This document shows positions 1 through 47,220 of a DNA stretch of 64,000 nt, piece after piece. Numbering within the stretch: the first letter of the stretch is position 1; every line of letters begins with the position of its first letter. The notes beneath the pieces were generated by a model that saw only the letters and a program-made list of their open reading frames with translations, did no database searches and had not been told where the DNA came from. The translations under genes and the position numbers were made by a program. Origin of the DNA: Savitreella phatthalungensis (taxonomy: Eukaryota); assembly GCA_051599415.1 (NCBI GenBank), contig AP039709.1, positions 124,001-188,000 of the forward strand, read 5' to 3'.

Positions 1-1062
1 TCACCGGCACATCTAGACTTTGTCATCACTGTAGGCGGGACTGACATCCACGACAAGCTCATGCAAGGTACAGGATACGGTCGCTGTGTCGACTTCCTCG
101 CTCCAGGGGACCGCATCCGCACGACAGGCTTCCGAATGTTCCGGTCGCACTGGACGAAACTCTCATATGCTCGGCCGGAGACAGTGTGGTCAGGGACGAG
201 TATGGCTGCAGGCATCGCCGCTGGTGCCATCGCCACATTCCTCCATCCGCTTCGTCGGCTGACGCGTAAGCGTGAGGAAGAGCACCTAATCCACACATAT
301 TCACTGTCCCTCCTCGTCAAGACTTACCTCGCCATCTCAACCTTCGATCTAGAAGACATCCTTCCGCCACCTGCTCCAAACGACGAAATGATCCTGTACG
401 CACCTCCCAGCTTCTTACGCAACCGTCATCGCGACGGTCGTACCCGTGACAGCTCTTTCGACCGTGTCCTCGATACACCTGGCGTCGAGCCAGAAGCTCT
501 AAGTAAAGACAGAGCACTGCGCGACCAAGCAGCCATCCCTCGGCAATACAGCCACAAGCTCCTCGATGCTCAGCGCAACGACCCAAACCGCAAACTGTCC
601 CACATGATTCACCGCTTCCAAAACGGACTCGACCCTTTCGACCAATGGCCCCAGAGAAACCAGGAGCGGACTATGGCGATAATGCGCGCCTGGCGACATG
701 GTGTTGCCTATCAGACCACACGCAAACTCGTCCAGGTGCCCTTCGCTGGTCAACATCCCTTCCAGCCATTCCCGGACTCAGCATTCCCGTTTCCCCACTC
801 CTTCACTGCCGCGCAGCTCGACCTCCAGCTCTCTTGCGACCCGATCTACAACGACAAAGAGCTACACGACAGCGTCGATCGAGCACTCTGCGAGCTCGTC
901 GAAGAACACAAGCGAGCTCAAGCGTCAGCATCCGCATCTGCCGCGCTCGATGTACATGAGCTTACTCCCGTCGCCGACCACAATAATAACGACCCAGAGG
1001 ACCTCCAAGACCCCGCAAGCTCACCCATTCTCCACCGCAGGCCAGTCCGTTCTCACCTATAG
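1..1062 (+). CDS. Subtilisin-like (S8) protease, array copy 1 (5'-truncated by window edge)
   Basis: Frame is open from base 1 (SPAHLDFVITVGGTD...GYGRCVDFLAPG...WSGTSMAAG) and includes the catalytic Ser motif. It shares C-terminal blocks with copies 2-4. Stop TAG at 1060-1062. Confidence 0.9.
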   Translation, partial: SPAHLDFVITVGGTDIHDKLMQGTGYGRCVDFLAPGDRIRTTGFRMFRSHWTKLSYARPETVWSGTSMAAGIAAGAIATFLHPLRRLTRKREEEHLIHTYSLSLLVKTYLAISTFDLEDILPPPAPNDEMILYAPPSFLRNRHRDGRTRDSSFDRVLDTPGVEPEALSKDRALRDQAAIPRQYSHKLLDAQRNDPNRKLSHMIHRFQNGLDPFDQWPQRNQERTMAIMRAWRHGVAYQTTRKLVQVPFAGQHPFQPFPDSAFPFPHSFTAAQLDLQLSCDPIYNDKELHDSVDRALCELVEEHKRAQASASASAALDVHELTPVADHNNNDPEDLQDPASSPILHRRPVRSHL

Positions 1063-1330
1063 CTCGTCCTCAATCTGCATCAAGCCTCCCATATCCATGT
1101 CTATCGAGCATTCCTCAAGTCCGACATCTATCTGGCGCATGACGAGTTCGGCGATACACTGCGTCACGCGACAACAGCTACAGCGAGGCAACTTGTGACC
1201 ATAGCAGCTCGGACTTCTCAATGGCTCCATGTGTCCGACATCACTTTTCAGCATTTGTCACTCGTCGTCCCAACAACGTCTCTCGACAGAAACATCTAAG
1301 TGCGATCCTTGATCTACAGGGCCACCATCC

Positions 1331-3352
1331 ATGAGACACCTTATACCAATATTGTTCCTCATACACACGGCGTCTGCCGAGGACAATGTCGATATAGGTG
1401 ATACTGGCTGCTTCGCATTCGTCCTGTCCTCGGAGCCGCGAGGATTCATCGATTCCCTCCATCCTTCCCTTCGAGATGGGGTCGACCGGCACGCACACAG
1501 ACACGACATCATCTCCGGAGTATATCTACCGCCGAAAGCTCCGAACGCCCTCCGAAGAAGCCTCAGCATGCAGCGTGGTCTTGTCATCTCCCCAGACGAT
1601 AAGCTGCACCCGCACGCCGACCTCGTTCAAGCAGATGCGCCATGGCATCTCACCAGATCCTCCACCTTCGATCGTCTCAGGAACATCGACGACCCAGAGC
1701 TCGCACATCTTCCCTACACTTGGGACAGTGACTGGGCAGGCCAAGGCACGTCGATCTACCTCGTCGACTCAGGCGGCGACTGCTCCTACGATTGGTTCGG
1801 CAACAGATGCGGCATCACAGATATCCCCTGGCCAGGAGAAAACGGCGTCATCCGCACTCGAGATCTCGCTGGTCACGGCACGGCCGTCATGGGCGCCTGC
1901 TGCTCCAGCGTACACGGACACGCTCGGCGCTCCCCACTGCAACCGCTCAGAATTTACGATACCCACATGGAAGGCACCATCCTGCGCTTTGTCGACGTCG
2001 CCAGCTGGATCTTCGAGCAACTCAACCAGAAAATCTCACGTCGAGGCTACCACTCAACTATCCTACTCCTGCCTTCAGGAACGATAGTGCGCAGCGACGT
2101 TCTAGATAGACTCTGCGAGCGGCTCGACAGGGCCGGAGTGCTGCTCGTCACGTCCGCCGGTAACGATGCAATCGATTCCTGTCGAACGTCTCCAGGGCAT
2201 CTCGACTTTGTCGTCACCGTCGGCGCCACCAATCCAGACGATCAGATCATGATCGGTACAGGCTTCGGCCCATGTGTCAATATCCTCGCACCAGGCCAAC
2301 TCATTAGAACCTCGGGATTTCGATCGCTACACAGCAAGTGGTCCGATCTTCGCCATCCTCGCAGCGAATCTGTATGGAGCGGCACTAGCATGGCTGCAGG
2401 TGTCGCTGCTGGTGCTATCGCCGTTTTCCTCGACCCTCTCCAAAGACTCGTCAGCCACCAGCGAGCACACCACAACAGTCGCTCTGTCGCAGAACTCGTC
2501 CACACCTACCTCGCAGTCTCGTCCGCCCAGCTCGACGGTGACGTTCTCCCTCCGCCTCCCGACGAGCGCGACCAACCTCGGTTCCTCCCGCCACAGACAG
2601 TCCGAATGCGGCACAAAGATTTTAGGACGCGCGACTCCGACTGGATCACCGTCCTAGACACCCCCGGTGTGCCCGAGCAGATGCTTGCGATCGATCAGCA
2701 CGCTCGCGAACGTCAGATCCATCCGCGCGCACACGGCAAGCAAAAACGACCTGAGGAAGCGCCAGGCGAAGGGAGCAACCCACGCGAGCCCTTGCCAACC
2801 CTCACACGAGGCAGGGTCTGGTCGCATCGAGGCAAAGCTAGACTACGTCATATCAACGACTGGCCAGTGTCATCCCTCAAATCGATGGAGACTATCTACA
2901 AGCGTTGGCAAGAGGGTATTCTCGAGCACACGACAAGGCTATTCATCCATGCATCCACCAAGCATCCTTTCGCCCCTTCTCCGGAGCAACTCACAGACAA
3001 TGAGCCGCATCACGCATCAGACGCTCACGAAAGCGACGATCCCATGGACGAAGATGACCAGACACACTACCACCAGCGCCCTCACCATCTGGTCCACCAC
3101 GAATCGCATCCATACTTTGATCCCGTTCTCGTTGACCAGACCTGTAACGACGACCCAGACTTTGTCTCTCTGATGGACCGCGCTCTCTGTGCCCTCGTTC
3201 TTGAGAACTCCGCAAAAGCCAGATCTACTTCCTACCGGATCCGTAAAGGCTTGATGCATCGCACGACCATGATGCCGATCGGCAGCTGGCCAACACGCAG
3301 ACCTCCAGGCAGACCTCGGAGGACTCCAATCGCCGTTACACCAACAGCCTGA
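1331..3352 (+). CDS. Secreted subtilisin-like (S8, proteinase K-like) protease, array copy 2
   Basis: Signal peptide MRHLIPILFLIHTASA; mature start QADAPWHL; triad VDSG (D146), GHGT (H182), GTSMA (S353); oxyanion SAGN; about 300-aa C-terminal extension. Confidence 0.92.
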   Translation: MRHLIPILFLIHTASAEDNVDIGDTGCFAFVLSSEPRGFIDSLHPSLRDGVDRHAHRHDIISGVYLPPKAPNALRRSLSMQRGLVISPDDKLHPHADLVQADAPWHLTRSSTFDRLRNIDDPELAHLPYTWDSDWAGQGTSIYLVDSGGDCSYDWFGNRCGITDIPWPGENGVIRTRDLAGHGTAVMGACCSSVHGHARRSPLQPLRIYDTHMEGTILRFVDVASWIFEQLNQKISRRGYHSTILLLPSGTIVRSDVLDRLCERLDRAGVLLVTSAGNDAIDSCRTSPGHLDFVVTVGATNPDDQIMIGTGFGPCVNILAPGQLIRTSGFRSLHSKWSDLRHPRSESVWSGTSMAAGVAAGAIAVFLDPLQRLVSHQRAHHNSRSVAELVHTYLAVSSAQLDGDVLPPPPDERDQPRFLPPQTVRMRHKDFRTRDSDWITVLDTPGVPEQMLAIDQHARERQIHPRAHGKQKRPEEAPGEGSNPREPLPTLTRGRVWSHRGKARLRHINDWPVSSLKSMETIYKRWQEGILEHTTRLFIHASTKHPFAPSPEQLTDNEPHHASDAHESDDPMDEDDQTHYHQRPHHLVHHESHPYFDPVLVDQTCNDDPDFVSLMDRALCALVLENSAKARSTSYRIRKGLMHRTTMMPIGSWPTRRPPGRPRRTPIAVTPTA

Positions 3353-3588
3353 CCATTCCTAACCTCATCATCCGGACCATCACGGGATGCGTGGCATAGC
3401 ACACAACTCCGCTTATCTCGCGTGTCAACCGAAAACGATGCTCATGACTACCAATTCATTCGCGTTCCTATCACTCCGTCGGTCGGCCAGGCACCTCGGA
3501 ACGTTGTTCAGAAACACTCGTCATAGTGTTGTAATGAACGCATGCAGTCTCATTCATCGACCGCCGTCTCCATCACTCATTACTCATC

Positions 3589-5289
3589 ATGCTCCTTCTT
3601 GTCCTTGTCAATCTCCATCAAATGCTATGGTCGAGGATGCTGGCAGAGGCTCGCGAAGGAGCAGCTTCTGACGATCGATTCATTCTCACTCATGCGCAAA
3701 CGCCCTTTCTCGACCTCGTCCACCCATCCCTTCGACATCATGTCCAAACACACACGCAGGATTTCCAAGACGCCATCTCCGGCATCTACCTCCCGAGAAA
3801 CACCACACCATCTCTCCTCGCAAGTCTCAAAGCCCACAGAGGCTTCCTCACGGCCGATAACCCGCAACTAAGGCCAGCAGCCATGGAAATGCAAGTAGAT
3901 GCTTCATGGGCCCTCAAGCGAATCTCTCGGCCAGGTCGATTAAACGTGCCCAGCCCAGCGAGGACCTTCTTCCAATACGCCTTCGACGATGAATGGCAGG
4001 GTGCAGATGCGGTTATCTGGGTGATCGACTCCGGTGTCGACTCCGGTAATCCCGACTTTGGCGAGCGCGTCCTCGTCTCTCCGAGGTCACAGCACAAGCA
4101 GATGCTCGCACGGACGGACTCAACAGGTCATGGTACAGCGGTTGCAGGCGCCTCCGCGTCCACACGCCACGGCATCGCCCGATCAGCGTGGATTAGACCA
4201 GTCAAAGTCCTCGACAACTACTTGCGCGGCAACGTCCTTGACGTCATCTCCCTCGTCACACCCATCCGGACAGCAGGCTGGAAGCTGGCGAACAAGCGCA
4301 ACGCCGTCCAAATCGTCGTCTTCGCAGCCACCGTTCCCATCAATCCGGCACTCGACGTCGCCATCACCAAATTAGATCATTCAGGATTCGTCGTCGTCGT
4401 ACCAGCCTCGAACGAACCCATCGACGCATGCATCCTCTCTCCATCTCACCTGAACGAGGTTATCACCGTCGCAGGCACAACGACCAAAGACACGCTTCTT
4501 GCGGGCAGCGGCTATGGCGCCTGTGTCGACATCCTCGCGCCCGGTCAGAGCGTCAGAGTACCCGGCATCCACGGACTCCCGGCCAGACCTTTCGCCCTCA
4601 ATAGACCAGTGCCTCGAGCACAGTCCGTCTGGACAGGTACGAGTATTGCAGCAGGCTTCGTCGCTGGCGCTATCGCCATCTACCTCAACCCTCTGCGCAG
4701 GCTTTCAACCAGGCCAGAGCCGAACTACGGCGTGTCACTCTCGACCCTCGCACGATCCTACCTCGAAGTCTCCTCGATCGAGCTCCCCGACCAGATCGTC
4801 TCAGAAGGCCTGCCAACTTCCCAAGATATTCATTACATGCTCAGAGGATCCGGATATTCGCATTTGAGCCCTGACGGCCGTATGCGGAACGACATGCCGG
4901 ACAGCGAAGCCTACGTCGTCGGTCGAGTCTTCCCTGAGGATGCCCTCAAGCAGGCTGCAGACTTATACACCGCTTGGGCATCTCGCGCTAGACACTCCAC
5001 CACACGCCGCTTCCTCCAGACCTCTCTCAAACACAACTTTGAGCCGCTTGAGATCCCCCGCGACCCAGCAGCCCAAAGAGCCTACTGCGATGAGCAAGCA
5101 GACTTCAACGAAAGCGTCGAAAGCGCTCTGTGCGAGCTCGACCGCGAGCGAGCAGAACGCGCGCACGAGCGCGAACGCAAACGTCCACGCCCATCAGAGC
5201 AAGCTCATCAGTTACTCCACGCCAGGCCGCCCATCCCGCCTGAGTACAGACCCGTCAGACCAAAGCTCATCAGGCCCCAGCATTCCTAG
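3589..5289 (+). CDS. Secreted subtilisin-like (S8) protease, array copy 3
   Basis: Hydrophobic N-terminus; QVDASWAL; IDSG, GHGT, PASN and GTSIAAG motifs; shared C-terminal domain. Start codon uncertain. Confidence 0.9.
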   Translation: MLLLVLVNLHQMLWSRMLAEAREGAASDDRFILTHAQTPFLDLVHPSLRHHVQTHTQDFQDAISGIYLPRNTTPSLLASLKAHRGFLTADNPQLRPAAMEMQVDASWALKRISRPGRLNVPSPARTFFQYAFDDEWQGADAVIWVIDSGVDSGNPDFGERVLVSPRSQHKQMLARTDSTGHGTAVAGASASTRHGIARSAWIRPVKVLDNYLRGNVLDVISLVTPIRTAGWKLANKRNAVQIVVFAATVPINPALDVAITKLDHSGFVVVVPASNEPIDACILSPSHLNEVITVAGTTTKDTLLAGSGYGACVDILAPGQSVRVPGIHGLPARPFALNRPVPRAQSVWTGTSIAAGFVAGAIAIYLNPLRRLSTRPEPNYGVSLSTLARSYLEVSSIELPDQIVSEGLPTSQDIHYMLRGSGYSHLSPDGRMRNDMPDSEAYVVGRVFPEDALKQAADLYTAWASRARHSTTRRFLQTSLKHNFEPLEIPRDPAAQRAYCDEQADFNESVESALCELDRERAERAHERERKRPRPSEQAHQLLHARPPIPPEYRPVRPKLIRPQHS

Positions 5290-5529
5290 TGACCCATACA
5301 TTGGTCACGAGCTCGCGTGTCCTTACATACAGGCCACACATGGCCATCCGACCTCGGACACCATGCCAGCAAACAGCCCGAGCAAATGTCAGGTGAGTCT
5401 TCCTAACGTGAGAGACCTCCTAAAATCCAACTCACTTGATATCAAACTCAACATCCGACCTTCATCCTGTCACTCATCCACTTCGTGCACTTCTCCAGCA
5501 CCTCAAGCATACCAAGCGAAAGTCTTCGA

Positions 5530-7386
5530 ATGCTATTCCTCGGGACAATCGCGCTCGCTCCGCTACTCAGCAGCAGCGTCATCGTCGTGGGAGCAAGCCG
5601 CCTGTCGGACGAGCGACCAAAGGGTCTTGGCCAATTCGCCGTCACTCACTCAACGCGACAATTACACTCGCTCATCCACCCAACTCTCCGCGAGAAGCTG
5701 TCAGACACCGCTCTAGACTACACAGAAGTCATCAGCGGTGTCTATCTGAGCGAATCGACGTCAGAGGGTTTGCTCCGTTCACTTAACCTCCACAGAGGTT
5801 TCACGACATCCCCAAACTCAAATCTCCAACCTTCTTCACGCCACAACCAGGTCGACGCATCCTGGGCGCTCCACAGGATGACAGGTGTCGAAAGGATCTC
5901 AAACCTCGAGCCAAATCCGGAGGGTCGTGACTTTGAGTATGTCTATGATTACGACTGGCTAGGTCATGAAGCGATCGCCTGGATCGTGGACTCCGGAGTT
6001 GACTGCAGCAACAGAGATTTTTTCTACCGAGCAAAGTGTCGTGAGAAATCGGCCCACAACGCGCTCAGATTACCGTACGACGTCAACGGCCACGGAACAG
6101 CAGTCGCGTCCGCCTTTGGCGCCAATCGCTACGGGATCGCGCGCAGATCTGTCATCCGGCCAGTGCGAATGTACAACGCTCGGATGGAAGCTGATATCCT
6201 CGACTTCATCAAGATCTCTCAGCAGCTGAGGAAATCAATCAACAGAGCTACCCAGAGCAGACCATCCATCTCACACCTCGTCCTCTTCCCCTCGTCCGCG
6301 TCGAGAAACGACGCGCTAGACCTGTCGTTCCTCTACCTCGATCGTGCTGGCATCATGTGCGTCACAACTGCATCGAATCAGCCAGTCGATGCGTGTACGC
6401 TGTCTCCAGCAAACCTAGACTTTGTCGTTACTGTCGGTGCAACGAACGTCGACGACCATCTTCTCGAGGGCACCGGGTACGGCCGATGTGTTGACATCCT
6501 GGCTCCAGGCGACCGAGTGCGCGTGAGCGGTTGGCATGCTCCGGATCCCGTGCAAGACCGGCATCCACGTCCGCCCGCTATCTACAGCGGGAGCTCAATC
6601 GCATCCGCGTTTGTCGCAGGCTACATCGCCACCTGGCTCCAACCCATCAAACACCTCTCCCTGATCCCACACCCGCACAGACAAGCCTCCGTCGCGACCC
6701 TCGTCAAAACCTACCTCGCAGTCTCATCCACAACGCTCAAAAATCAACTCATCCCCATCGACCCATCCACACACCAACCACAACCCCCATCAACCTTGAA
6801 CAGATTCATCATCCCACTCACCCGACCACAGTACTCCGAAGGCCAATCGTTCGGCCCCAAGATCGATCCTATGGCACTACGCGGCCAATACACCACGACC
6901 CTGACCCCACACCAATCGACCGCCTCGGATCCCAATCCCGACTTTGCCGGCTCATCAACAGGGACGACTAGAGCGTACAGCACGATGGACATGCACATGA
7001 CGTACTCGATCTGGGTGGAAGGTGTGATGGAGCAAACGACGCGGTCGTTTGTGCACGTGAGTGAACGCCAGCCGTTTGCTGCGAACGCTGATGGTGAGGA
7101 CGGTGAGGAGGAAGGATACCGGATGACTGGTGCGAGGACGCTAGCGATGCAGAGCTGTGAGGATCTCGCCAACTTCCAGAGAGACGTCGATCGACATCTC
7201 TGCGCACTCGTCACTCAAGCACTACACCAACCACCCTCACCATCACCACCATCGTACCTCCATCTCAGGCCAAGACCACCACACACCTTCCAGCAGTATC
7301 ACCACTTCGTTCCGACTTCAAGAGCCATGCACAAGAAACCGAGAATCCATCATCAGTCCCCCTCACCAGAACCAAGTATAGTATAG
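5530..7386 (+). CDS. Secreted subtilisin-like (S8) protease, array copy 4
   Basis: First in-frame ATG at 5530 gives a signal-like MLFLGTIALAPLLSSSVIVVGA. Motifs VDSG, GHGT, TASN and variant GSSIAS; shared C-terminal domain. Confidence 0.88.
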   Translation: MLFLGTIALAPLLSSSVIVVGASRLSDERPKGLGQFAVTHSTRQLHSLIHPTLREKLSDTALDYTEVISGVYLSESTSEGLLRSLNLHRGFTTSPNSNLQPSSRHNQVDASWALHRMTGVERISNLEPNPEGRDFEYVYDYDWLGHEAIAWIVDSGVDCSNRDFFYRAKCREKSAHNALRLPYDVNGHGTAVASAFGANRYGIARRSVIRPVRMYNARMEADILDFIKISQQLRKSINRATQSRPSISHLVLFPSSASRNDALDLSFLYLDRAGIMCVTTASNQPVDACTLSPANLDFVVTVGATNVDDHLLEGTGYGRCVDILAPGDRVRVSGWHAPDPVQDRHPRPPAIYSGSSIASAFVAGYIATWLQPIKHLSLIPHPHRQASVATLVKTYLAVSSTTLKNQLIPIDPSTHQPQPPSTLNRFIIPLTRPQYSEGQSFGPKIDPMALRGQYTTTLTPHQSTASDPNPDFAGSSTGTTRAYSTMDMHMTYSIWVEGVMEQTTRSFVHVSERQPFAANADGEDGEEEGYRMTGARTLAMQSCEDLANFQRDVDRHLCALVTQALHQPPSPSPPSYLHLRPRPPHTFQQYHHFVPTSRAMHKKPRIHHQSPSPEPSIV

Positions 7387-7438: not shown

Positions 7439-9016
7439 TTAGGATGAGGGTCGATCTACGACGTAGTTGAAGGTGTTGGTGTTGTTGTTGGACCAGCCTG
7501 GTGCTTGGATGTCGCTCCTGGGTAGACCTGTGTGAGATGTGGTGGTGTTGGTGTTTAGGGCGAGGTTGTTGAGTCTCCTGTTGGCGACGTCTAGAGCGAC
7601 CTGTCTCTCGAAGGCTGCATTGGTAGCACGCTTCCACCGAACCACAACCTTGTCCACGTTCTCCGTCATCGCAGCCCTCAACACCAACCCACCCACAACC
7701 ACCAGCACAGGCAAGTACCCAAACGAGATCGTCCACCCGACATTCACTTCCGGATTGATCGGCGATACCGTGTACTCGGAAGCACTCGCGTTCGCCCAAC
7801 CAACACGCACCAGCAGCACACCCAAGCTCACAAGCACACACCCGCAGTGGATAGCCGACCATGCTGGAGGTTTGTAGGTGTCGAGGAATGCGGTGGTCGA
7901 TGTGACTGATTTTGAGTCGGCTGGAGCGACTGTGCCTGGTCTCGATCTCGGCGCGGTATTTGTGGAGATGCGTACGTCTTTGAGGGTGGATACGCGACGG
8001 GTGTGCGAGCGCACGTTCTTGCTCGATGGCTTTGTGGCGTCAAAGTCTGCGGGTAGGGTGTCGTCGAGGTCGCCGCCGTCGAGAGTGGCGCTGCTGCCAT
8101 CGGAGACCTGTGAGATGTGCGGGCCTGATGGAGCTTTGGAGATCTCAGTCATGACGACACCGTTGTCATGGTCCTCGGCGTTGTCGGGTTTCCCTTTGCG
8201 GCGCCAGTCGATGAACGGTCGCGTCGCATACCAGCAATTTGCAAACATCCACACGTTGATGCCCCATGCCACAATGGAGAAGATGGCACCGAGCTTGAAT
8301 CGTGCATCGGTCGCCTTTGCAATGTCCCCCCGATAGGCGTTTCCGAATGATCTTAGACTCGTCAGAAACAAAGCGATGAAGTCTGCGGCGTAGAATCCCA
8401 AAGGCATCCAGAAGTGGATTTTCGACGTCCGCAATTTGTCGTGCTCGGCCACCGCGACGTGAGGCCGCTCAGCACGGTAGTGGTCAAACTGGATCTGCGC
8501 CCAGTTTCGCGTGAGCTCCCAGACAGCGGCCTGCGCTGTCGCTAGTGAAGCCGGGAAGAATAGGCACCAGGCGCCCGTACTGCCACCCTGGACAACAGCA
8601 CGATCGATATCGATCGCGAAGAAACTGCTGGCGACGACAATAGCACTCGTGATGATCCCCCAGTAGAACTCCCACCGCTTTCCGTACGGATACAGGATGC
8701 TCTTGCGAGAGTAAGCTCGGCGGCCGTGTTTGTAGCATGCCGCGCACAGCATCGGGATCAGGATGATGAAAATTGCAGCAAACACTATGCCCGTAATTGC
8801 ATGCGATGCTAGTGGTTCGAGCGGGGAAGCGCAGCCTGTCCCATTCACAACAGTTCCGTTGTCGAAGATGAGCGGGATATAGCCTGGACGGACGATGTAG
8901 CATGCAGAAGCGTTACTCAGCGTCCCATTTGGGTAGAGTGTTCCGTTAGGATAACTGTCTGTGTAGTTGTAGTGACGCCAGACAGGTATCTGGCTGTCAT
9001 TGGCGTAAGGCATCAC
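7439..9016 (-). CDS. Fungal multi-pass membrane protein, DUF2434-like
   Basis: N-terminal YPNGTLSNASACY...NGTGCASP with N-glycosylation sequons; GKRWEFYW and IDIDR motifs; several hydrophobic segments. Confidence 0.7.
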   Translation of the reverse strand: MMPYANDSQIPVWRHYNYTDSYPNGTLYPNGTLSNASACYIVRPGYIPLIFDNGTVVNGTGCASPLEPLASHAITGIVFAAIFIILIPMLCAACYKHGRRAYSRKSILYPYGKRWEFYWGIITSAIVVASSFFAIDIDRAVVQGGSTGAWCLFFPASLATAQAAVWELTRNWAQIQFDHYRAERPHVAVAEHDKLRTSKIHFWMPLGFYAADFIALFLTSLRSFGNAYRGDIAKATDARFKLGAIFSIVAWGINVWMFANCWYATRPFIDWRRKGKPDNAEDHDNGVVMTEISKAPSGPHISQVSDGSSATLDGGDLDDTLPADFDATKPSSKNVRSHTRRVSTLKDVRISTNTAPRSRPGTVAPADSKSVTSTTAFLDTYKPPAWSAIHCGCVLVSLGVLLVRVGWANASASEYTVSPINPEVNVGWTISFGYLPVLVVVGGLVLRAAMTENVDKVVVRWKRATNAAFERQVALDVANRRLNNLALNTNTTTSHTGLPRSDIQAPGWSNNNTNTFNYVVDRPSS

Positions 9017-15634: not shown

Positions 15635-18600
15635 CTATCCTTGACCGACGGCGTTCAAGTTCTGGGTGTTGACCATGATGCCGTCTGTAACTTCTTGAGC
15701 TAGCATGTTGAGGAGGTTGTTGTTGTTGCCGTTTGCTTGTGGTGCAGGTGTGAGGGTGAGTGCCTGGTTGAGTTCTGTCTGCTGTGCTTGCTGGACTTTC
15801 GCTAGTCCCTGAGCGGTCTGGGTACTCTGTACACCGGTATCCTGAGCGAGCTGCTGGTTTTGGGCACGAACTTGCTGGCCCTGGCGGATCAGACCCTGGA
15901 GGGCGTTGATGTCCCGATTGGCAGCACCAAAGTCACCACGGGCAAGGTCGGTCTGGATTGACCGAACGGTTGCCAACTCAGCCTGCTGAATCCGCAAGTT
16001 CTCCGCAATGCCAGCGCGCAGACGAGCTTGTGGATTGTTACCACCATTGCCAACCACTTGACCAGCAGCGCCGGCAAAGCTCGCCCGGTTGACGCCGTTG
16101 TTGACGTTGTTGAAGCCGTTGTTGACGTTGAAGCCATTTCCTCCACGATTCAATCCATTGTTGAAGTTCTGATTGTTGAAACCTGTGTTGAAGCCGTTGT
16201 TCACGTTGTTGAAGCCTGTGCCGGCTCGATTGAGTCCATTGTTGAAGTTCTGACCATTGAAACCCGTGTTCAGGTTCTGGTTGTTGAAGCCTCCATTGAC
16301 TCCATTGTTCAATCCGTTCAATCTTCCGACGTTGTTCAGGTTGTTGAAGTTGTTGTTCAACCCATTGCCGGTATTAAAGCCGTTGATGTTGTTCAGGTTT
16401 TGACCATTCAGGCCATTGTTGAAGCCATTCAGGTTGTTCAATCCGCGATTCAAGCCGTTGATGTTGTTGAAGTTCTGCCCATTCAAACCATTGAAGTTGT
16501 TCAGCCCACGGTTCAAGCCGTTGAAATTGTTTATTCCATTGATGTTGTTGAAGTTCTGCCCGTTCAGTCCGTTGTTCAGTCCGTTCAAGCCATTGAGGTT
16601 GTTCAGCCCGCGGTTCAAGCCGTTGATGTTGTTCAGGTTATTGAAGTTCTGCCCGTTCAGACCGTTGTTGTTCAATCCATTGAAGCCGTTTATGTTATTC
16701 AGCCCGCGGTTCAAACCATTGATGTTGTTCAGGTTGTTGAGGTTCTGGCCATTGAGACCGTTGTTAAGACCATTGACGTTGTTCAACCCGTTTAAACCGT
16801 TGGGACGCTGTGCATTGAGGCCATTGACGTTATTGAGACCATTCAGACCATTCAGGCGCTGAGCGTTGAGGCCATTGATATTGTTGATGGTCAGACCGGC
16901 GTTGTTGAGGCCATTGACGTTATTCAACCGTCCATTCAGGTTATTGACATTGTTGAGCCCAGCGGTATTGAGACCGTTGTTGACGCCGTTGAGGTTGTTC
17001 AAGCGGCCGTTCAGGTTGTTGACATTGTTTAACCCAGCGGTGTTCAGACCATTCAGACCATTGACATTGTTCAATCGCGCAGCGTTGGCACCGGTGTTGA
17101 GCCCGTTGATGCCACGATTGAGACCATTGATGTTGTTGTTATTGTTGAGGGCGTTGATGTTCGTTAGACGACCGTTCAGATTGTTGACGCCGTTCAGGCC
17201 TGCCGTATTGATGCCGTTGTTGACGCTATTGATGTTGTTCAATCGTCCGCTCAGAGCGTTCTGGTTATTTAACCCGGCAGTGTTGAGACCATTGCTGGCA
17301 CCATTGACGTTGTTCAGCCGTCCATTCAAGGTGTTTGGAGTGTTCAATCCTGCGGTGTTGAGACCGTTGTTGAGACGACCAGTGTTTTGGCCTCGGACGT
17401 TGTTCAGCTGGGAGTTCAGCCCGCCGTTAAAGCCAGTCGTTTGGCCTCGGACATTGTTCAGCTGGGAGTTCAGCCCACCGGTGGGACCAGCGTTGTTCAG
17501 GTTGATGTTGATGGCGTTCTGGCCAGATTGACCCCTTTGGGCAGCATTGAGGTTGTTGGAAAGACCGGGAGCAACACCGCGATTGGCTGTATTTAGCTGC
17601 GATGAAAGGCGTCCATCAGCCTGCTGTGCAGACTGCAAAGATGTTCGCACGGCGTTATTGCTGGCGGCCGTCGTTTGTCCGGTCGCGAGCTGACCAGTGC
17701 GGACAAGTGTATTCTGTTGACCGCCTCGAGCCTGTGTCGTGGTCTGCTGGCCGCGAAGCGCATTGACAGCATTACCAGCACGACTCTGTGAGCCCGGATT
17801 ATTGAGTTGCTGCGTGCCAGTGGTACCGCCTCGCGGTGCATTGATGCCAGCGGGAACTGTCGATTGGGCAAGATTGCTTCTGACACCTCCTGCGACCTGC
17901 TGGCGATTGACCGTCTGGGTTCTCTGCTGTCCAGTGAGCGTGTTGACGCCACCAAGAGAATTTCCGCCGGTCGTTGCCCCACGAGTTGTGGCCCCTGTCT
18001 GCTGGCCTGTGAGCCGCGTCGTTGTGAGCTGAGAGGTCTGAAGTCCATTCTGCCTGGTATTCGTGGACGCTAGACCGCCGGTATTGGGCGCTGTTCTAGG
18101 ACGGGCGACCTGTGATGCTTGCAGGTTTTGTGCGGCTTGAGTGCCAGTCTGAGTCCTTTGTGTGGTGCTTTGTCCTGCTAGACGACCTGCTGGTGCTGTA
18201 GCTGGGCGATTGTTTGTAGTAAGAGAAGTGGACAGTCCAGAAGTTCCGAGCGGGTTTGTCGGTCCTCTGGCACGCCCGCCGGCTGCAATGCCAGTATTTG
18301 TCGGCGTCGACGACCGCGCCGGAGCGCTGCTTCCGGCTGCAAGTGACGTCTGCAGGCCTGTTTGACGGTTGTTCTGGCCTGTCGGAGTCGTCTGTCGGAC
18401 ATTACCACGTGTAGCAGTGAGCGAGCCCTGTAAGCCCGTCTGACTACCGCTGGTTAGAGAGCCCTGTCGCGTTCGAGCAGGGGAACCTGTAGTCGTGGTC
18501 TGACGCGTTGTTGCTCGAGTGTTTGCCAATGACGTCTGCAGATTGTTTTGACGGGCACTCTGACCGCCCGATGCCGCGGGACTTCGGTTCTGGCCTGTCT

Positions 18601-19141
18601 GAGCTGCGGGACGAGTTGTCGCACGCGTGGCTCCAAGGTTCGTCTGCAAATTGTTCTGACGTGTATTTTGACCCGCCGCAGAAGCTGGGCGCGTAGTTGA
18701 ACCTGTCTGAGCGGTGGGCTGGCGCGTAATGGCACGAGTATTGGCGAGAGAACTCTGGAGACCTGTCTGGCGAGCACCTGTCTGGGTCGTCTGACGGGCC
18801 TGAGCAGCGAGTCCGCTCGTCTGACGCGTGGACGTAGTCTGACGTGTGGTCGCTCGCGTGTTGGCTTGTGAGGCTTGGAGACTTGTGCCGCGAGGTGTGG
18901 TTGCTGCTTGCCTGGTCTGGCTCGTCAACTGTCTCGTTGACTGACCCGTCGTTCCTCCAGTACGTACCGCGGAAGTCGAGGCGGTCGAACGCTGTGCCGG
19001 AGGAGTACTAGCCTTTCGTGATGTCGGCTGCTTTTGTGGAGTAGATTGCCTCTGTGGTGTGCTCGAGGCGGGCCGAGAAGCACGCTGTGCATCACCGAAA
19101 TTGCTAAGCAGGGCAAGAAGGAGCAAGCCTGGAAGGCGCAT
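15635..19141 (-). CDS. Secreted 1168-aa repetitive protein: Thr/Gln/Arg repeats, Asn/Gly/Leu repeats, C-terminal helical domain
   Basis: ATG at 19141 gives signal peptide MRLPGLLLLALLSNFGDA. 3.5-kb uninterrupted ORF with amino-acid-level repeats. Confidence 0.85.
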   Translation of the reverse strand: MRLPGLLLLALLSNFGDAQRASRPASSTPQRQSTPQKQPTSRKASTPPAQRSTASTSAVRTGGTTGQSTRQLTSQTRQAATTPRGTSLQASQANTRATTRQTTSTRQTSGLAAQARQTTQTGARQTGLQSSLANTRAITRQPTAQTGSTTRPASAAGQNTRQNNLQTNLGATRATTRPAAQTGQNRSPAASGGQSARQNNLQTSLANTRATTRQTTTTGSPARTRQGSLTSGSQTGLQGSLTATRGNVRQTTPTGQNNRQTGLQTSLAAGSSAPARSSTPTNTGIAAGGRARGPTNPLGTSGLSTSLTTNNRPATAPAGRLAGQSTTQRTQTGTQAAQNLQASQVARPRTAPNTGGLASTNTRQNGLQTSQLTTTRLTGQQTGATTRGATTGGNSLGGVNTLTGQQRTQTVNRQQVAGGVRSNLAQSTVPAGINAPRGGTTGTQQLNNPGSQSRAGNAVNALRGQQTTTQARGGQQNTLVRTGQLATGQTTAASNNAVRTSLQSAQQADGRLSSQLNTANRGVAPGLSNNLNAAQRGQSGQNAININLNNAGPTGGLNSQLNNVRGQTTGFNGGLNSQLNNVRGQNTGRLNNGLNTAGLNTPNTLNGRLNNVNGASNGLNTAGLNNQNALSGRLNNINSVNNGINTAGLNGVNNLNGRLTNINALNNNNNINGLNRGINGLNTGANAARLNNVNGLNGLNTAGLNNVNNLNGRLNNLNGVNNGLNTAGLNNVNNLNGRLNNVNGLNNAGLTINNINGLNAQRLNGLNGLNNVNGLNAQRPNGLNGLNNVNGLNNGLNGQNLNNLNNINGLNRGLNNINGFNGLNNNGLNGQNFNNLNNINGLNRGLNNLNGLNGLNNGLNGQNFNNINGINNFNGLNRGLNNFNGLNGQNFNNINGLNRGLNNLNGFNNGLNGQNLNNINGFNTGNGLNNNFNNLNNVGRLNGLNNGVNGGFNNQNLNTGFNGQNFNNGLNRAGTGFNNVNNGFNTGFNNQNFNNGLNRGGNGFNVNNGFNNVNNGVNRASFAGAAGQVVGNGGNNPQARLRAGIAENLRIQQAELATVRSIQTDLARGDFGAANRDINALQGLIRQGQQVRAQNQQLAQDTGVQSTQTAQGLAKVQQAQQTELNQALTLTPAPQANGNNNNLLNMLAQEVTDGIMVNTQNLNAVGQG

Positions 19142-19430
19142 CCTGTACAGTACAGATGAGAAGAAGCGGAGTGGAGATGGTGGTCCGACGACCTTGCACC
19201 ACAAGGCGTCTTATACGCCGATCGAGATCGATCGTTGACGGACATCTGAGACACGTCAAGACCGCACGGGATCCGTCGGAGCTTGTTACGGCCTGTAACA
19301 GGCGTTTGAAGTCACTCATCCAGCGCAAAGTTTGAGGATGTCATGAGACATAGCGGAAGATAGATTGGCATAAATGCTGTGAGAGGTTATGCATCGAAAC
19401 AAGTGCTGGGTGCCAGGCTGGCGAACTAGA

Positions 19431-30428: not shown

Positions 30429-31445
30429 GATCTCTCCCATCGCAGTATTCCGAGAGCCATCTGTCCATCCCCCTGTCGGCCTCTGAATCAGGCATCTTCT
30501 TCAGACAGTCATTCCGAGTCGCTTCACGTCCAGCTTCCAGACACATAGACACACAGACACACACGCACATACACTCTCTCAGGTTCACAATCTTTCCCTT
30601 CTATACTGTACCTCTACTCTTTCCTTCTGATACACTTCTCTCTCCCTGTCGACACAGACTTGACCGTATAGGGTCAACCCGAGACGCCTATAACGCATCA
30701 TTCCATAGGTCATCTGCCATCTAGAGGTCACGCATCGCACGCACGCTCTCCAGCAACGCTTCTCTCGAAGCTTAGACAGGCGTGTATCAGCAAAGGTGAA
30801 CATTCGTCATCGGTGTGTCATCCATCATCGACGCACTTCAAACGCTATTCGGCAACGCTAAGCAGGTGCAGGTCATCGCTAGCCAACATCTATACAGGAG
30901 TCACTATCAGTAGACGATAGGCTCTGCGACAATTAAGGGTGGGTCGTCATACTCTCGTCCGCACAGACACAGCACACAGACGCGCTTCTCTTCCCAACCC
31001 TTCTCATTAGTCGCCGTCGCACTTGCCGCCTTCGCACTCGCACACGCGCCCACTCGGAAATCTGAAACGTGTTCGCGCTCGTACAACCTCGCACAAATTT
31101 GTACAAGGGTCAGTAGAAAGCCTCGGTCACTCCACCAGCCTAATCACAGGTTAGACACACACTCACGCACACACACTCTCTCCGTCTCTGTGTGTCTCTC
31201 TCTCTCTCTCTCTCTCCTTCCCCTCCGCCCACAAGTCTACAAGCTTGTCTTCACGTCACGCATCCATCACATATCCTGACGCAGCTCTCACGCCTCTCTT
31301 GACGTCACGTAAGAGCCATCGTCATCACCACCATCACCACCACCACCACCACCACCAGCTGCGGCAGCATCACAACCCTTACTCCAAGGATACATAAGCA
31401 CTCGTGAAACCGTCCTTCTTTACGACTCAAACCGTCTCATACAAC

Positions 31446-32246
31446 ATGTATAACGGTATTGGCCCACTAGACATGACCACGGACGGACGTCCCACCAAAA
31501 TTGCCAGACCCTCCTTGAGTCTCACCACCGGACAAACTCATCACCAGAACACAAATCGGGCTAAACGTCTCGTCCAACGCAACATGAGCCTCAACAGCTC
31601 TGTTCCGTCTCTCTACCATGATGATGAAGAAGAGCACCTTGATGGAGACGACGAGGAGGACACTGACGAACTCGAGTCAAACCTCCTTCCAAGCAGGGGA
31701 TCTCACGAACATGACGATGACGATATCACTCGAGAGCCTTGTCTTGCAGACGATGGCTTGGCAGAGGCTCGTAGACAGGCCTGGTTCTCCTCTGCGCTTG
31801 CGTCTGCCATGGTTGAGTCTCCTCGAGAAGTAGAACTGATCAAGTCATGGCGCGGCGCGATCGAACACGGCGCCGACTACGACGACGACCACGACCAAAC
31901 TCTACTCGACTGTGACCGGATGGTGACGATCCATGAGCTTGGAGGCGATTCGAGTGATGAAAGTCTCTCACCCGATGATGGCCGCAAAAGCGTCAGTTTC
32001 GGCACTGCAGAGGTGGTCGACGGTTCAGACTACTTTGCCACAGCAGCTCAACCGCTCTCCCGCGCGTCCTCGATTAGCAAGCCGTGCCTGCGCTCCAGAG
32101 CCTCCAGCATCTCCTCCAACGGCAACCACAACCTCACTCACCTGCGGAATCATCCTTATCCAGGAGCTGGGCCGGGTGCCGGTGCAGGAGCAGGCATTAC
32201 CGACTCGGCCTTTACCACTATTCGCGAGCTCCCTTCCGAGCGCTGA
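31446..32246 (+). CDS. Hypothetical acidic, probably disordered protein
   Basis: 801-nt ORF from ATG 31446 with protein-like composition. No family recognised. Confidence 0.65.
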   Translation: MYNGIGPLDMTTDGRPTKIARPSLSLTTGQTHHQNTNRAKRLVQRNMSLNSSVPSLYHDDEEEHLDGDDEEDTDELESNLLPSRGSHEHDDDDITREPCLADDGLAEARRQAWFSSALASAMVESPREVELIKSWRGAIEHGADYDDDHDQTLLDCDRMVTIHELGGDSSDESLSPDDGRKSVSFGTAEVVDGSDYFATAAQPLSRASSISKPCLRSRASSISSNGNHNLTHLRNHPYPGAGPGAGAGAGITDSAFTTIRELPSER

Positions 32247-38240: not shown

Positions 38241-39344
38241 ATGAACAACATCGATCTGATTAGTCAGACTTCTGCAGGGACATCCGTCCGCCTGCTACGA
38301 AAGCGTCGACAGCTCGACGCGATGGTGGACGACCTGCAGGCTATGGAGGAGCGTCTGCGCTTGATCGAGCTGAAGACGAGTGTTACGGAAAAACCCACCT
38401 CGAACCCGCGGCTGCCGACGAAACAGCGAGACCCCTCGTACTTTCTCGATCCGCTTGATTTCTCATCCATCTTCTCGCCCACATCCTCGGCGTCCGCCGC
38501 AAGAGGGAGCTACTCGATCGGCCGGCCGACTAATAGCAGGGTTCCAGGTGGTCCACGGAGCTCTCACTCTCCAGCAGTTTCCAACGGACAGCGGAAGCCC
38601 AGTGTGGCATTTGTCCGAGCGGTTGAATTTCCGCCGCCCTGGTCACCCCTGCGACCTGTGAGAACTCCGCCGCAGAAGCAGCGTACCACACAGCGCTCGG
38701 GACTCTCTGGTGCTTTTGTTGCCGGGCGCATAGATGACGCCAGGAGACACAGCATACAGGTGAGCGACTTGACGCAAGGTCATCCACGGGTGCCCTCCCA
38801 GAGGCCTCCTGTAGCGGTGCAGCGTCCAGAGGATGATAAGTGGTCGAGGAGAAGCTCTCTCCCGGTATCACTCGCCGGGAGTCACGCTCGGTATATTCCG
38901 TCCGTGTCGTCCCCACTGGCATCCACATGCACGCGAGGGAATATCCCAAGCACATACGCTGTCAAGCACCGCGATGACCACTACCAAAACAAGTCGCAGC
39001 AGCAAGCACTTGGCATCTCGGGAAAGACGTTCTCGAGTGGTGATACTTCTGCAGATGCATATGACTGGCGTTCCTCGGGCATTTCTCCTCATACAGAGGC
39101 CTCAAACGATGTAGACGCAAGGAGAAGATCACCGAATCGATCAGGAAGAGATGCACAGCAGAGGCCTAGCTCAGACTGGGGCATCTCTACTGCAAGGCCG
39201 CAGCTAAAGACACTACCACGACAGCCTGGAGGTGCTACTAAATCAGTCACCCCTCGAGGTAAGTCCATGTGGAAGGAAAGCATGATGACCATGTTTGATC
39301 GTCATGTCATCTCAAGAGCTAGAAGAGTACTCCTAGGCAAGTGA
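38241..39344 (+). CDS. Hypothetical Ser/Arg/Pro-rich protein with a short N-terminal coiled coil
   Basis: 367-codon ORF. No family recognised; 5' structure uncertain. Confidence 0.55.
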   Translation: MNNIDLISQTSAGTSVRLLRKRRQLDAMVDDLQAMEERLRLIELKTSVTEKPTSNPRLPTKQRDPSYFLDPLDFSSIFSPTSSASAARGSYSIGRPTNSRVPGGPRSSHSPAVSNGQRKPSVAFVRAVEFPPPWSPLRPVRTPPQKQRTTQRSGLSGAFVAGRIDDARRHSIQVSDLTQGHPRVPSQRPPVAVQRPEDDKWSRRSSLPVSLAGSHARYIPSVSSPLASTCTRGNIPSTYAVKHRDDHYQNKSQQQALGISGKTFSSGDTSADAYDWRSSGISPHTEASNDVDARRRSPNRSGRDAQQRPSSDWGISTARPQLKTLPRQPGGATKSVTPRGKSMWKESMMTMFDRHVISRARRVLLGK

Positions 39345-44281: not shown

Positions 44282-47220
44282 CTACTCATTTGATGACGAC
44301 TGTCTCATCATGACGATCTGATGCAGCTCATCCTGCTGTTTCTTCGGATTCACCACATCGATGCCTCGCTTTTTGTACCAGACAGTCAAGTCTTGGACGG
44401 CGGCCAGGGTATCTGCTTTGACGAGCTCGTCCGTAGCGAGGGTTGCGAGGTGGACTGCATAGGTGAGCCACCTGCCTGCGTGCGTGATGGATTGGAGTCC
44501 GTGGTTTGTGTAGTTGATGGCAATTTGGTGGCAGCGAAGCGCAAGGTGATGGAGCTCGTCCTGCGGGTACGTTGATCTAGAGTCGTAGATCAGCCTGATG
44601 AGGTCTCTCATGTAGTTGCCTGTGGCAGTGATCGCCTGGAGCATTCGAGTTGGGAGAGCGTTGGGTAGGTAGACCACATGCTCAAGCTCACGCTCGACCA
44701 CGCATCTAAACAAGACACGCTGCCAGCGCGCAATTTTGATGACGTCGGTCTTACCGTTTGACATTGCCGAGCCAACAAGGTGCTGGAGCAGGTCAGCCAG
44801 CTTGTTTGGGTCGTTCAGTCGGTCTGCGTGGAGCAGTAGAGCGTCTGCCATGGCCGTGTGGCACATTCGGGACAGCTTCCAAGACTCGGCAGTATCAATT
44901 AGGACATTCAAACGCTCCGGATGGTCTGTGTAGCATGCAGCTTCGAAAGCAGCCACAAGGATTAGACCCATCTGCTGTATGGCCTCAGCTCGCCATGTCT
45001 CGTCGCTGTCAAGGTCGCCCATGTCGCGAACGATCTGCTCGTATTGACTTGCTGTGCCAGCCGTGCTTTCGAAGAATCTCGCCGCTTCGATCTTACCGTC
45101 AGCATCCACATTTGCCGAAGCTGCGGCGTTGCGCGCCTGGAGAAGCTCACTCATGGTGAGCAAGTAGGTGGCACGTGCAAGCCGTCGGCTGGGCATCTTG
45201 CTTGGATCGGCGTATGAGTAGATGAGCTTGATACAGCTCTCGAGAAGTGCGGATATCGGAGCTTCATCCCAGATGGTAAAGTATTTGATGGCCAGGTTGA
45301 GTGACATGGCAGAGAAGACGTCACGCTCGTCGTCCGTGCATCCAGAGAGTCCTGCGTTCTCGGTCCGGGCGATCCGTGAGACAGCTGCAAAGCTCTGTGT
45401 GATAGCTCTGATGATCCAGAGCTCTGGCTGCGGTGAGGATGCACACACATGCGCTAATTTACGCACAATCAGTCGGTGCACTGCCATGAGATTGACGCGC
45501 GTAGGATCGGAGTCTGCGAGGATGAGAACGCCGCGAATCAAGCTGACGACGACTTCATGAGCATCGACTGATTCTGCTGCCTGAATACAGCTGGCAAGCA
45601 TCTCGAGGGAGCAGTCGTCGTTGGCGCGCTGCGCGAGGTTGGCCGCATACTCTTTCGCCTCATCGAATCGACGGGCAGTGAGCGCACAGCGTAGTGCGAG
45701 TAGATGAGTGATGGCATTTTCTTGCTGTGCCGGCACAGTCGAGAGGACGGCTAGACCTTCAGCTGGACGATTTGCCTCCAGTTGGCAAAGTGCGATCCGC
45801 CGAGCAAATTTTGCTTTGTTTGCATCGTCTCCAGACCGCAGGGCATCATGTAAGCCAGCTTGACACCACGCGATACATTTGTCGTGGTCTGACTTGTCCA
45901 AAAGTGACTCCGAAGCCTTCCACATGAGCTACTGGTCAGCTGGGCGATGGCACGATCAGGATCACTCACCACTTGACTCGCGTTGACAATGTCGGCTGAC
46001 AGGGGATGCGTCAAAGCGAGTTGATCAAAGATGCCGCGTAACTCGTCCACGTTTTCAATACCCGTGGCCATGCTGACGCGTCTAACAATCAATGCGTCCA
46101 GCTCGTGGTGTTCAATCTTGATCAGACGCTGTATCAGACGATCCATACAGGCACGACCCAGCGCGTGGTCGTTCTCGTTGAGTTGGAGACAGCGTGCGAT
46201 GATAGGCTCGAGAAGCGTCTCATCGGATTTGTCAAATAAGTCTATTGCCTGCATCAGTCTGTCGACCGGCTGCATGTCTTGCGAGAGCTCGATGTCCGCT
46301 CTGAGCAGCTCAAGCCAGGTTGTAGGTCGCCACCGCTGGCCTGCATCCTCCAATACAGTCTGTGCTTTGACAGATGCCTCCAAAGTACCTAGTGCCAGAC
46401 ACGCCTGCACCAGCCTCTGAAGAGCGGCTTGGCGAAGCTGCCCAAAATCCGCTTCGTCGAAGGTGTGATATGCCTTGTCGAGAAGGGCGATACGCTTTTC
46501 GGGTGCTAGATCATGATTTTCAGAGAGGCTTAGCATGGCACGAGCTATTTCCTGCCGGGTTTCCCGTGTCGCATTACCTGCAAAGATGGCGACATACTGA
46601 TCGAATGTGTACTCTGCCAGCTCATGCTTGCCTCGGCTCATTTCGAGTCTGACGCGAGTGAGTGCCCATCTGAGGACATCTGGATCTGCCGGGTCTGAGA
46701 GATGGAGTCTTTGGTGGTGCTCGGCACTTGCTTCCACGAGTCTGGAGGCGACCTGGGATTGACCAAGATCCAGAGCAACCTCGCATGCTTGTGCGTTCGC
46801 ATTCACAATCTTTCTCAGATCTTCTGTGTTTGGTCCAGACGATTGGACCGATGCCTCGAGCAGTAGGCATGCTACAAGGAGCGCCATAGCAATGGTCGAT
46901 TCGGCTTCGCTTGGAACCAGACGCCGAAGTCTCAACGCGGTATTGTAGAGATGCACGGCGTGCTGATTCAGCGCAGGCTCGCAGAAGTATCGACCAATGT
47001 TCCGGACAAGGCCGATGTGCCTGGAAGCTGTGTCATATAGATCGGAGAGCGCTTGGTCAACTGCAGAAGGTGTATGATACTCGTTTTCTAGCAGGCGGGA
47101 AGCTTCACGAGCTTGACGTTCAAGCATCTCAGCACGACTTTTGACTGAAGGTGGTTGTCCAGTATCCAGAGTCATTGGCTTGTCTAGCATCCCAATCGGA
47201 CGGTCTTCGGAGGTCGACAT
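44282..47220 (-). CDS. SPO22: Meiotic TPR-like ZMM protein Spo22/Zip4 (TEX11), 2 coding exons: 47220-45970, 45928-44282
   Basis: A 41-nt intron (GTGAGT..GCTGAC..TAG) joins two long ORFs into a 965-aa all-helical protein. LMWK..AWC..LH..NKAKFARRIALC, IARW.R.LF and YPQDEL blocks resemble fungal Spo22. Confidence 0.7.

Follow-up and report, generated by a model that had tools for sequence, protein, structure and literature searches.

A four-gene subtilase array in Savitreella phatthalungensis belongs to an old, divergent expansion of secreted-type proteinase K-like proteases

Fungal subtilases belonging to the proteinase K-like subfamily (MEROPS S8A), such as proteinase K, PL646, Ver112 and Alp1, provide the closest described reference for the locus examined here, an array of four adjacent subtilase (S8) genes at the left end of a 64,000-nucleotide stretch of the Savitreella phatthalungensis genome (contig AP039709.1, G000:C21:124001-188000, in an assembly of 12.7 Mb and 27 contigs), hereafter the window. 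The array shares with this subfamily the fold, the Asp-His-Ser triad, the oxyanion-hole Asn and the order of signal, propeptide and catalytic domain. The family to which the array belongs differs from it in that identity is ~25%, the propeptide is invisible to Pfam I9 and the substrate-strand motif is lost; the window copies additionally have a two-Cys tail and, ahead of the final strand of the fold, an insertion. Published counts of proteinase K-like genes range from 0 to 19 across 83 fungal genomes (PMC5371821), and the 55 such genes found here suggest an unrecognised ecology for the lineage.

Two further sets of fungi are relevant for comparison. A secreted subtilisin family, OG102, is reported to be expanded in some Protomyces lineages (bioRxiv 10.1101/594028); it has the same domain order and the same type of propeptide and is likely a sister clade, although the three Protomyces proteins compared, which are the next named matches to the conventional C24 enzyme of S. 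phatthalungensis (50-56% identity), are themselves conventional, unlike the divergent family described here. P0017-P0019 presumably belong to OG102. Among selected rows of supplement 3 of PMC5567314, Metarhizium has 43-44 S8 genes, Arthrobotrys 40, Torrubiella 40 and Conidiobolus 39, and the 10 Taphrinomycotina rows have 1-4, with 13 in Pneumocystis carinii. Because that survey excluded inactive homologues, the comparable figure for S. phatthalungensis is 43 triad-bearing genes, a count similar to those of the insect-, nematode- and animal-associated fungi, whose genomes measure 28-42 Mb.

The array consists of four S8A proteinase K-like genes, all on the plus strand and side by side, with stop-to-ATG spacings of 268, 236 and 240 bp and core identities of 34-44%; all exceed the Pfam Peptidase_S8 cut-off. 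Each copy contains the triad in subtilase order and the oxyanion-hole Asn, which is preceded by Ser rather than Gly in three of the four. An earlier reading made from the sequence only had described four co-oriented S8 paralogues about 240-270 bp apart, with signal-like N-termini, a shared propeptide and Asp/His/Ser triads in copies 2-4, and all of this holds; the HP..ISG..SL..RG propeptide and the triad are present in copy 1 as well. The signal-like starts were called by a crude hydrophobicity rule rather than by SignalP, and the copies are called intronless because their frames are open and gene models in the database agree, not from RNA. That reading also allowed for an array running on leftward, which proved not to be the case: a Fe-ADH gene ending at C21:123016, 207 bp upstream of copy 1, borders the array on the left and a DUF2434 gene borders it on the right, so that it has exactly four members.

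The AlphaFold2 model of copy 3 (mean predicted local distance difference test score, pLDDT, 80.4) adopts the proteinase K fold, and its best structure matches are fungal proteinase K-like enzymes, led by 3f7o (Z 39.7, root-mean-square deviation (rmsd) 2.0, 281 residues aligned), with 8rse as a further match (Z 39.2, rmsd 1.9, 277 aligned). Since the structure alignment extends to residue 467 of the model, the TTR motif most likely forms the final strand of the subtilase fold; the low-confidence stretch that precedes it is, as modelled, most likely an insertion inside the catalytic domain. The strand is followed by a two-Cys helical tail common to the four array copies only. The C-terminal region matches no Pfam family and was not found elsewhere in the genome, and that of copy 1 retrieved only itself among 719 candidates. 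The family propeptide (model pLDDT 85.2) lies where an N-terminal I9 domain would be expected, and subtilase propeptides take the first four places among the 48,161 chains compared with it, though with a modest Z of 5.1-5.4 (rmsd 2.9-3.3 over 59-68 aligned residues). Pfam I9 matches none of 31 family propeptides, no Foldseek match to the propeptide model reaches E 0.001, and the propeptide profile finds nothing significant among PDB sequences. Judged by sequence and model together, the window copies are S8A proteases with intact catalytic machinery and a propeptide modelled as I9-like, and proteolytic activity is predicted for them. Assignment of the copies to the vacuolar cerevisin/PRB1 orthologues was rejected, given their different tree branch and the lack of a canonical I9, as was assignment to kexin (S8B) or TPPII, whose characteristic length, motifs and extra domains they lack.

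The array is a small part of a much larger family. For the inventory of S8 genes, Pfam matches were supplemented by protein queries and then by a profile, iterated over the regions retrieved until it settled at 58 open reading frames (ORFs), two of which form a single intact gene (C6:493946-495468) split, by inspection, by a 62-base canonical intron. This leaves at least 57 S8 genes, and an extra query with a triad-dead copy revealed no new S8 place; Pfam alone gives 48 matches, none with an internal stop, so that standard Pfam annotation undercounts the family and also overlooks the propeptide. The 57 or more genes comprise kexin, TPPII, PRB1, two conventional secreted enzymes that are 66% identical and have a consensus cleft, and 52 divergent paralogues. 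Kexin and TPPII (named by inspection) are separate single genes on C2 and C16 with family-specific features, and the PRB1 orthologue (C5:241716-243239) is the sole I9 match in the genome. The median core identity over 1539 pairs of the genome's S8 proteins is 26%. Nine directly adjacent arrays, with 13, 4, 4, 4, 3, 2, 2, 2 and 2 members, account for 36 of the 52 divergent paralogues. The triad is present in 41 of the 55 proteinase K-like genes (in 43 S8 genes when kexin and TPPII are counted). Among the divergent paralogues, 34 have both triad and propeptide, four have the triad without a recognisable propeptide (C3:180176, C3:548799, C20:222158 and C23:22415), 14 have neither, and none combines a dead triad with a propeptide.

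The divergent paralogues appear to have a common origin. Trees were built under LG+G4 and under a mixture model from 80 catalytic domains, 54 from the genome and 26 selected outside proteins, with kexin, TPPII and the intron-split gene set aside (the alignments set aside kexin and TPPII) and with support given solely by the SH-aLRT. The window array forms one clade (SH-aLRT 100 and 99) and is not spread over separate conserved subfamilies, with PRB1 on another branch; all 51 divergent rows fall on one branch (95 and 97), which under the mixture model is sister to nine Taphrinales-type secreted rows (88). When the propeptide profile is run over 131 outside proteins, the top seven scores all belong to the Taphrinales-type secreted group, and hhalign gives a propeptide probability of 96.6 for the Taphrinales-type set vs 12.7, 7.4 and 0.5 for three other sets; this propeptide homology lends independent support to the sister relation. 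The comparisons suggest that the expansion is probably sister to the Taphrinales secreted proteases. Four environmental proteins (P0014, P0015, P0020 and P0021), 51-63% identical to the conventional secreted enzyme, group with Taphrinales and possibly come from uncultured relatives.

No close homologue of the array was found outside this genome in the databases searched. A 31-sequence propeptide profile run against 1.84 billion representative proteins returned 30 matches, all from this genome, of which 29 are exact to family ORFs and one is a propeptide-only gene, P0155. No close homologue of copy 3 was found outside the genome among 8000 candidates scored, the best distant matches being weak bacterial-type S8s with 31% identity over 33% of the query. 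A metagenome scan found no orthologues of the array, only four loci at 28-32% identity over part of the query, and an atlas search retrieved generic S8 clusters only. The apparent restriction to this genome may reflect sister genera that are unsequenced. No paper describing the expansion was found in the literature searched, with subscription journals outside coverage. Horizontal transfer or contamination is not supported: third-position GC content (GC3) is 0.62-0.64, fitting the median of 0.63 in the neighbouring housekeeping genes, and those neighbours are fungal, although the best distant matches of copy 3 are the weak bacterial-type S8s noted above.

The duplicates are old and their reading frames have been maintained. 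In all six array pairs, fourfold-degenerate sites are 0.28-0.43 identical vs 0.56-0.65 at second positions, and in all five dead-copy pairs tested the values are 0.25-0.37 vs 0.60-0.65, the second-position identity being inflated by alignment on protein. Fourfold sites near saturation together with open frames imply ancient duplication under maintenance. The suggestion of an old lineage-specific protease expansion made in the sequence-only reading is thus borne out (one clade, near-saturated synonymous sites and no close homologue outside the genome), at a scale, 52 divergent paralogues, that it underestimated.

The catalytic cleft has been remodelled in the live members. The comparison covered 79 columns whose conservation among 109 conventional homologues is 90% or higher. 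In these, the 37 live divergent rows (with the intron-split gene left out) hold the triad and scaffold columns at 0.9 or more; the substrate-strand glycines are down to 0.27 and 0.03, and the Met that follows the catalytic Ser is down to 0.22. The substrate-strand motif S-[LFWYI]-G occurs in 103 of 109 conventional homologues vs five of 37 live divergent rows and none of 14 dead ones, and inspection shows the conserved S-L-G-G strand to be absent from all four window copies. We take this strand to be substrate-binding, and make the same assumption for the roles of its glycines and of the Met. Loss of the substrate-strand motif bears on specificity, not on descent.

The 14 paralogues without a triad (12 on C3 and two on C6) also lack the propeptide, and 12 of them have a signal-like start by the same rule; their scaffold residues are kept at 0.93-1.0 and the catalytic ones are lost. 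The largest array, C3:180176-200103 (L033-L035), is a pseudoprotease cluster of 13 adjacent propeptide-less paralogues, 12 of them without a complete triad, in which frames are open and the scaffold is conserved. A family of inactive serine protease paralogues is also found in the scabies mite, the SMIPP-S, which are built on the chymotrypsin-like fold. These secreted paralogues, with lost catalytic residues, inhibit host complement (PMC4031079). Their likeness, catalytic residues lost yet the family kept, is to the C3 and C6 paralogues and not to the window array, and they differ in fold and kingdom from the C3 and C6 proteins.

P0155 represents the opposite case, a propeptide near which no catalytic domain was found. 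Subtilase propeptides act as chaperones and inhibitors, and POIA1 and YIB2 are stand-alone I9 domains that inhibit subtilisins (PMC10580911). The fold search with the family propeptide also retrieved POIA1 (Z 4.9, rmsd 3.1, 66 aligned); P0155 differs from POIA1 and YIB2 in its signal-like start, its Ser/Pro/Thr-rich flanks and its derivation from the propeptide of its own family. When P0155 is paired in a model with the C15 paralogue's mature domain, it scores 0.68 vs 0.00 for the best of three controls (the mark for this score is reached by 51 of 78 solved and two of 108 mismatched pairs), with at least 83% contact agreement between runs and a partner pLDDT of at least 69, and its C-terminal strand lies inside the active-site cleft. 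Like complexes have already been solved, so the model may be memory and demonstrates likeness, not binding; P0155 is a candidate inhibitor or trans-chaperone. The coordinates of the features are collected in Table 1.

Table 1. Features of the subtilase array, its right-hand neighbour and the propeptide-only gene. Positions without a prefix are those of the window.
Feature	Position	Strand	Description
Copy 1, 3' part	1..1062	+	catalytic Ser codon 199-201, insertion, final strand, tail
Copy 1, full ORF	G000:C21:123224-125062	+	612 aa; start 777 bp left of window; propeptide and triad
Copy 2	1331..3352	+	673 aa; signal-like start, propeptide ~1406-1642, proteinase K-like domain, array-specific insertion and tail
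Copy 2 catalytic residues	within 1331..3352	+	Asp146, His182, Asn278, Ser353
Copy 2 propeptide, diverged	1406..1642	+	modelled beta-alpha-beta I9-like fold, mean pLDDT 85.2; no Pfam match
Copy 3	3589..5289	+	566 aa; signal-like start, propeptide ~3667-3906; Asp147/His181/Ser352, Asn275
Copy 3 array-specific C-terminal region	4801..5286	+	insertion, then most likely last subtilase strand (TTR motif), then two-Cys helical tail
Copy 4	5530..7386	+	618 aa; signal-like start, propeptide ~5623-5862; Asp154/His188/Ser356, Asn283
DUF2434 gene, outside array	7439..9016	-	right boundary
P0155, propeptide-only gene	C3:384522-385514 (L071:1498-2493)	-	signal-like start, Ser/Pro/Thr-rich flanks, family propeptide

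Several observations on neighbouring genes and on other members of the family can be added. A pectinesterase gene (L040:5322-6482) lies between two S8 genes beside the C13 array, placing a plant-wall enzyme next to proteases. The S8 paralogue C13:333626-336832 has a low-complexity C-terminal tail of ~570 residues, and several others have acidic, Ser/Arg-rich tails. Live copies that open at strand 1 of the propeptide with no signal-like segment are C9:429119, C13:265535, C13:270099, C13:271596, C17:121512, C17:123589, C18:208694 and C21:123224; this could be explained by short exons further upstream, by start codons other than ATG or by forms that stay inside the cell. The window further contains long ORFs without a Pfam match at 15635-19204 (minus), 31404-32246, 38241-39344 and 44282-45925, of 1189, 280, 367 and 547 aa.

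We consider it highly probable (about 0.9) that the window array goes back to a single gene, duplicated locally in tandem long ago, within a lineage-restricted, 52-gene expansion of secreted proteinase K-like genes, an expansion most likely derived from the Taphrinales type of secreted S8A gene. As to function, we propose, from what is known of the family, that copies 2-4 enter the secretory pathway and that the propeptide would chaperone folding, block the active site and then be removed autocatalytically. Triad and scaffold are retained, yet the substrate strands deviate from the consensus and also vary among the paralogues; on this basis each paralogue may be an extracellular protease of narrow specificity, directed at a different protein target in the leaf habitat rather than at bulk digestion. 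The targets would be apoplastic or defence proteins of the plant, or microbial competitors. Among leaf yeasts, Aureobasidium provides a precedent with its antifungal serine protease (PMC8329847). For secretion, narrow and diversified specificity and biotic targets on leaves, the odds seem to us about even or marginally better, and, as the sequence-only reading hinted, the locus may be an effector locus of a host-associated fungus.

A number of points weigh against these proposals. Copy 1 opens directly at the propeptide, without a hydrophobic N-terminus, and no upstream signal exon was found for it among gene models (0 models); about a quarter of the ORFs (14 of 56) likewise lack a signal-like start by the crude rule. 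The S8 arrays sit amid housekeeping genes, not in repeat-rich compartments, and S. phatthalungensis, classified as Taphrinales incertae sedis, was described from pineapple leaves that were healthy (PMC8877625). The placement beside the Taphrinales clade is not settled by LG+G4 and has a support of only 88 in the mixture model, the 26 outgroups are without Pezizomycotina secreted enzymes, and long-branch attraction may lie behind the placement. The inflation of second-position identity tempers the evidence for constraint, the association of triad with propeptide is not phylogenetically independent because 12 of the 14 dead copies are in one cluster, and a loss of proteolysis would explain the missing substrate-strand glycines equally well.

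The same family could instead be a nutritional toolkit of broad or complementary digestive proteases that scavenge nitrogen from pollen, insect or microbial debris on leaf surfaces poor in nutrients and are aimed at no biotic target in particular. S8 expansion correlates with pathogenicity but also with a saprotrophic habitat in soil and dung (PMC5567314), in Protomyces the family of secreted subtilisins has been tied to nutrient acquisition (bioRxiv 10.1101/594028), and isolation from healthy leaves fits such a role. We nevertheless consider this unlikely: the genome already has two conventional secreted enzymes with a consensus cleft, aspartic proteases show no comparable expansion (12 matches at about nine places), and bulk digestion explains neither why 32 of 37 live copies have a remodelled cleft nor why 14 dead ones are maintained. 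A different possibility is that the live copies, working like PCSK9, are binding proteins that process only themselves. The triad would then serve solely for cleavage of the propeptide, which would remain bound; binding would fall to a variable surface and the C-terminal domain, and the dead copies would be the end state of the same path. This would account for the remodelled substrate strand and for the retention of the triad by all propeptide bearers together with the absence of the propeptide from all dead copies, as expected if the triad mainly serves maturation, and the best sequence matches of copy 2 are PCSK9 chains (76 bits vs 62 or less). That similarity is, however, ~25% and may reflect shared divergence, fungal proteinase K-like enzymes outrank PCSK9 structurally for copy 3 (Z 39.7 vs 34.3, with a separate second structure search in agreement), and four copies hold the triad without a propeptide, all of which makes this account doubtful as well. 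Relaxed, decaying duplicates with little function would fit the signal peptides missing in some copies, the loss of the triad in 14 and the very long branches, but frames of 350-670 codons have stayed open despite near-saturated fourfold sites, in the five dead pairs too, the dead copies hold their scaffold and none of the 48 Pfam matches contains a stop; decay is very improbable and already largely refuted.

Alongside the diversified proteases of narrow specificity that we favour, the triad-dead, propeptide-less paralogues elsewhere in the genome could serve for binding or as decoys, and the free propeptide could inhibit or act as a trans-chaperone. Tentatively, and with the balance of probability on the other side, the three may be parts of one secreted system: diversified proteases, including the window array, pseudo-subtilases that bind plant or microbial proteins or act as decoys for them, and a free propeptide regulator. 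On this view S. phatthalungensis, to all appearance a harmless leaf yeast, would possess, in a genome of 12.7 Mb, a subtilase arsenal among the densest in fungi.

The window array alone is modest, and its value comes from the genome-wide family context. Large S8 repertoires are known from moulds associated with insects, nematodes and animals, with genomes 2-3 times larger, and early-diverging ascomycete yeasts usually have 1-4 such genes. In this one genome, a ladder extends from the consensus enzyme through the remodelled cleft, the propeptide-less enzyme and the dead scaffold to the free propeptide, and bears on propeptide-free subtilase folding and on the divergence of specificity. If the three-part system is real, it would point to a stage in the life of S. 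phatthalungensis, so far hidden, that is parasitic, predatory or antagonistic, and would show, within a single fold, a natural series leading from protease to binding protein.

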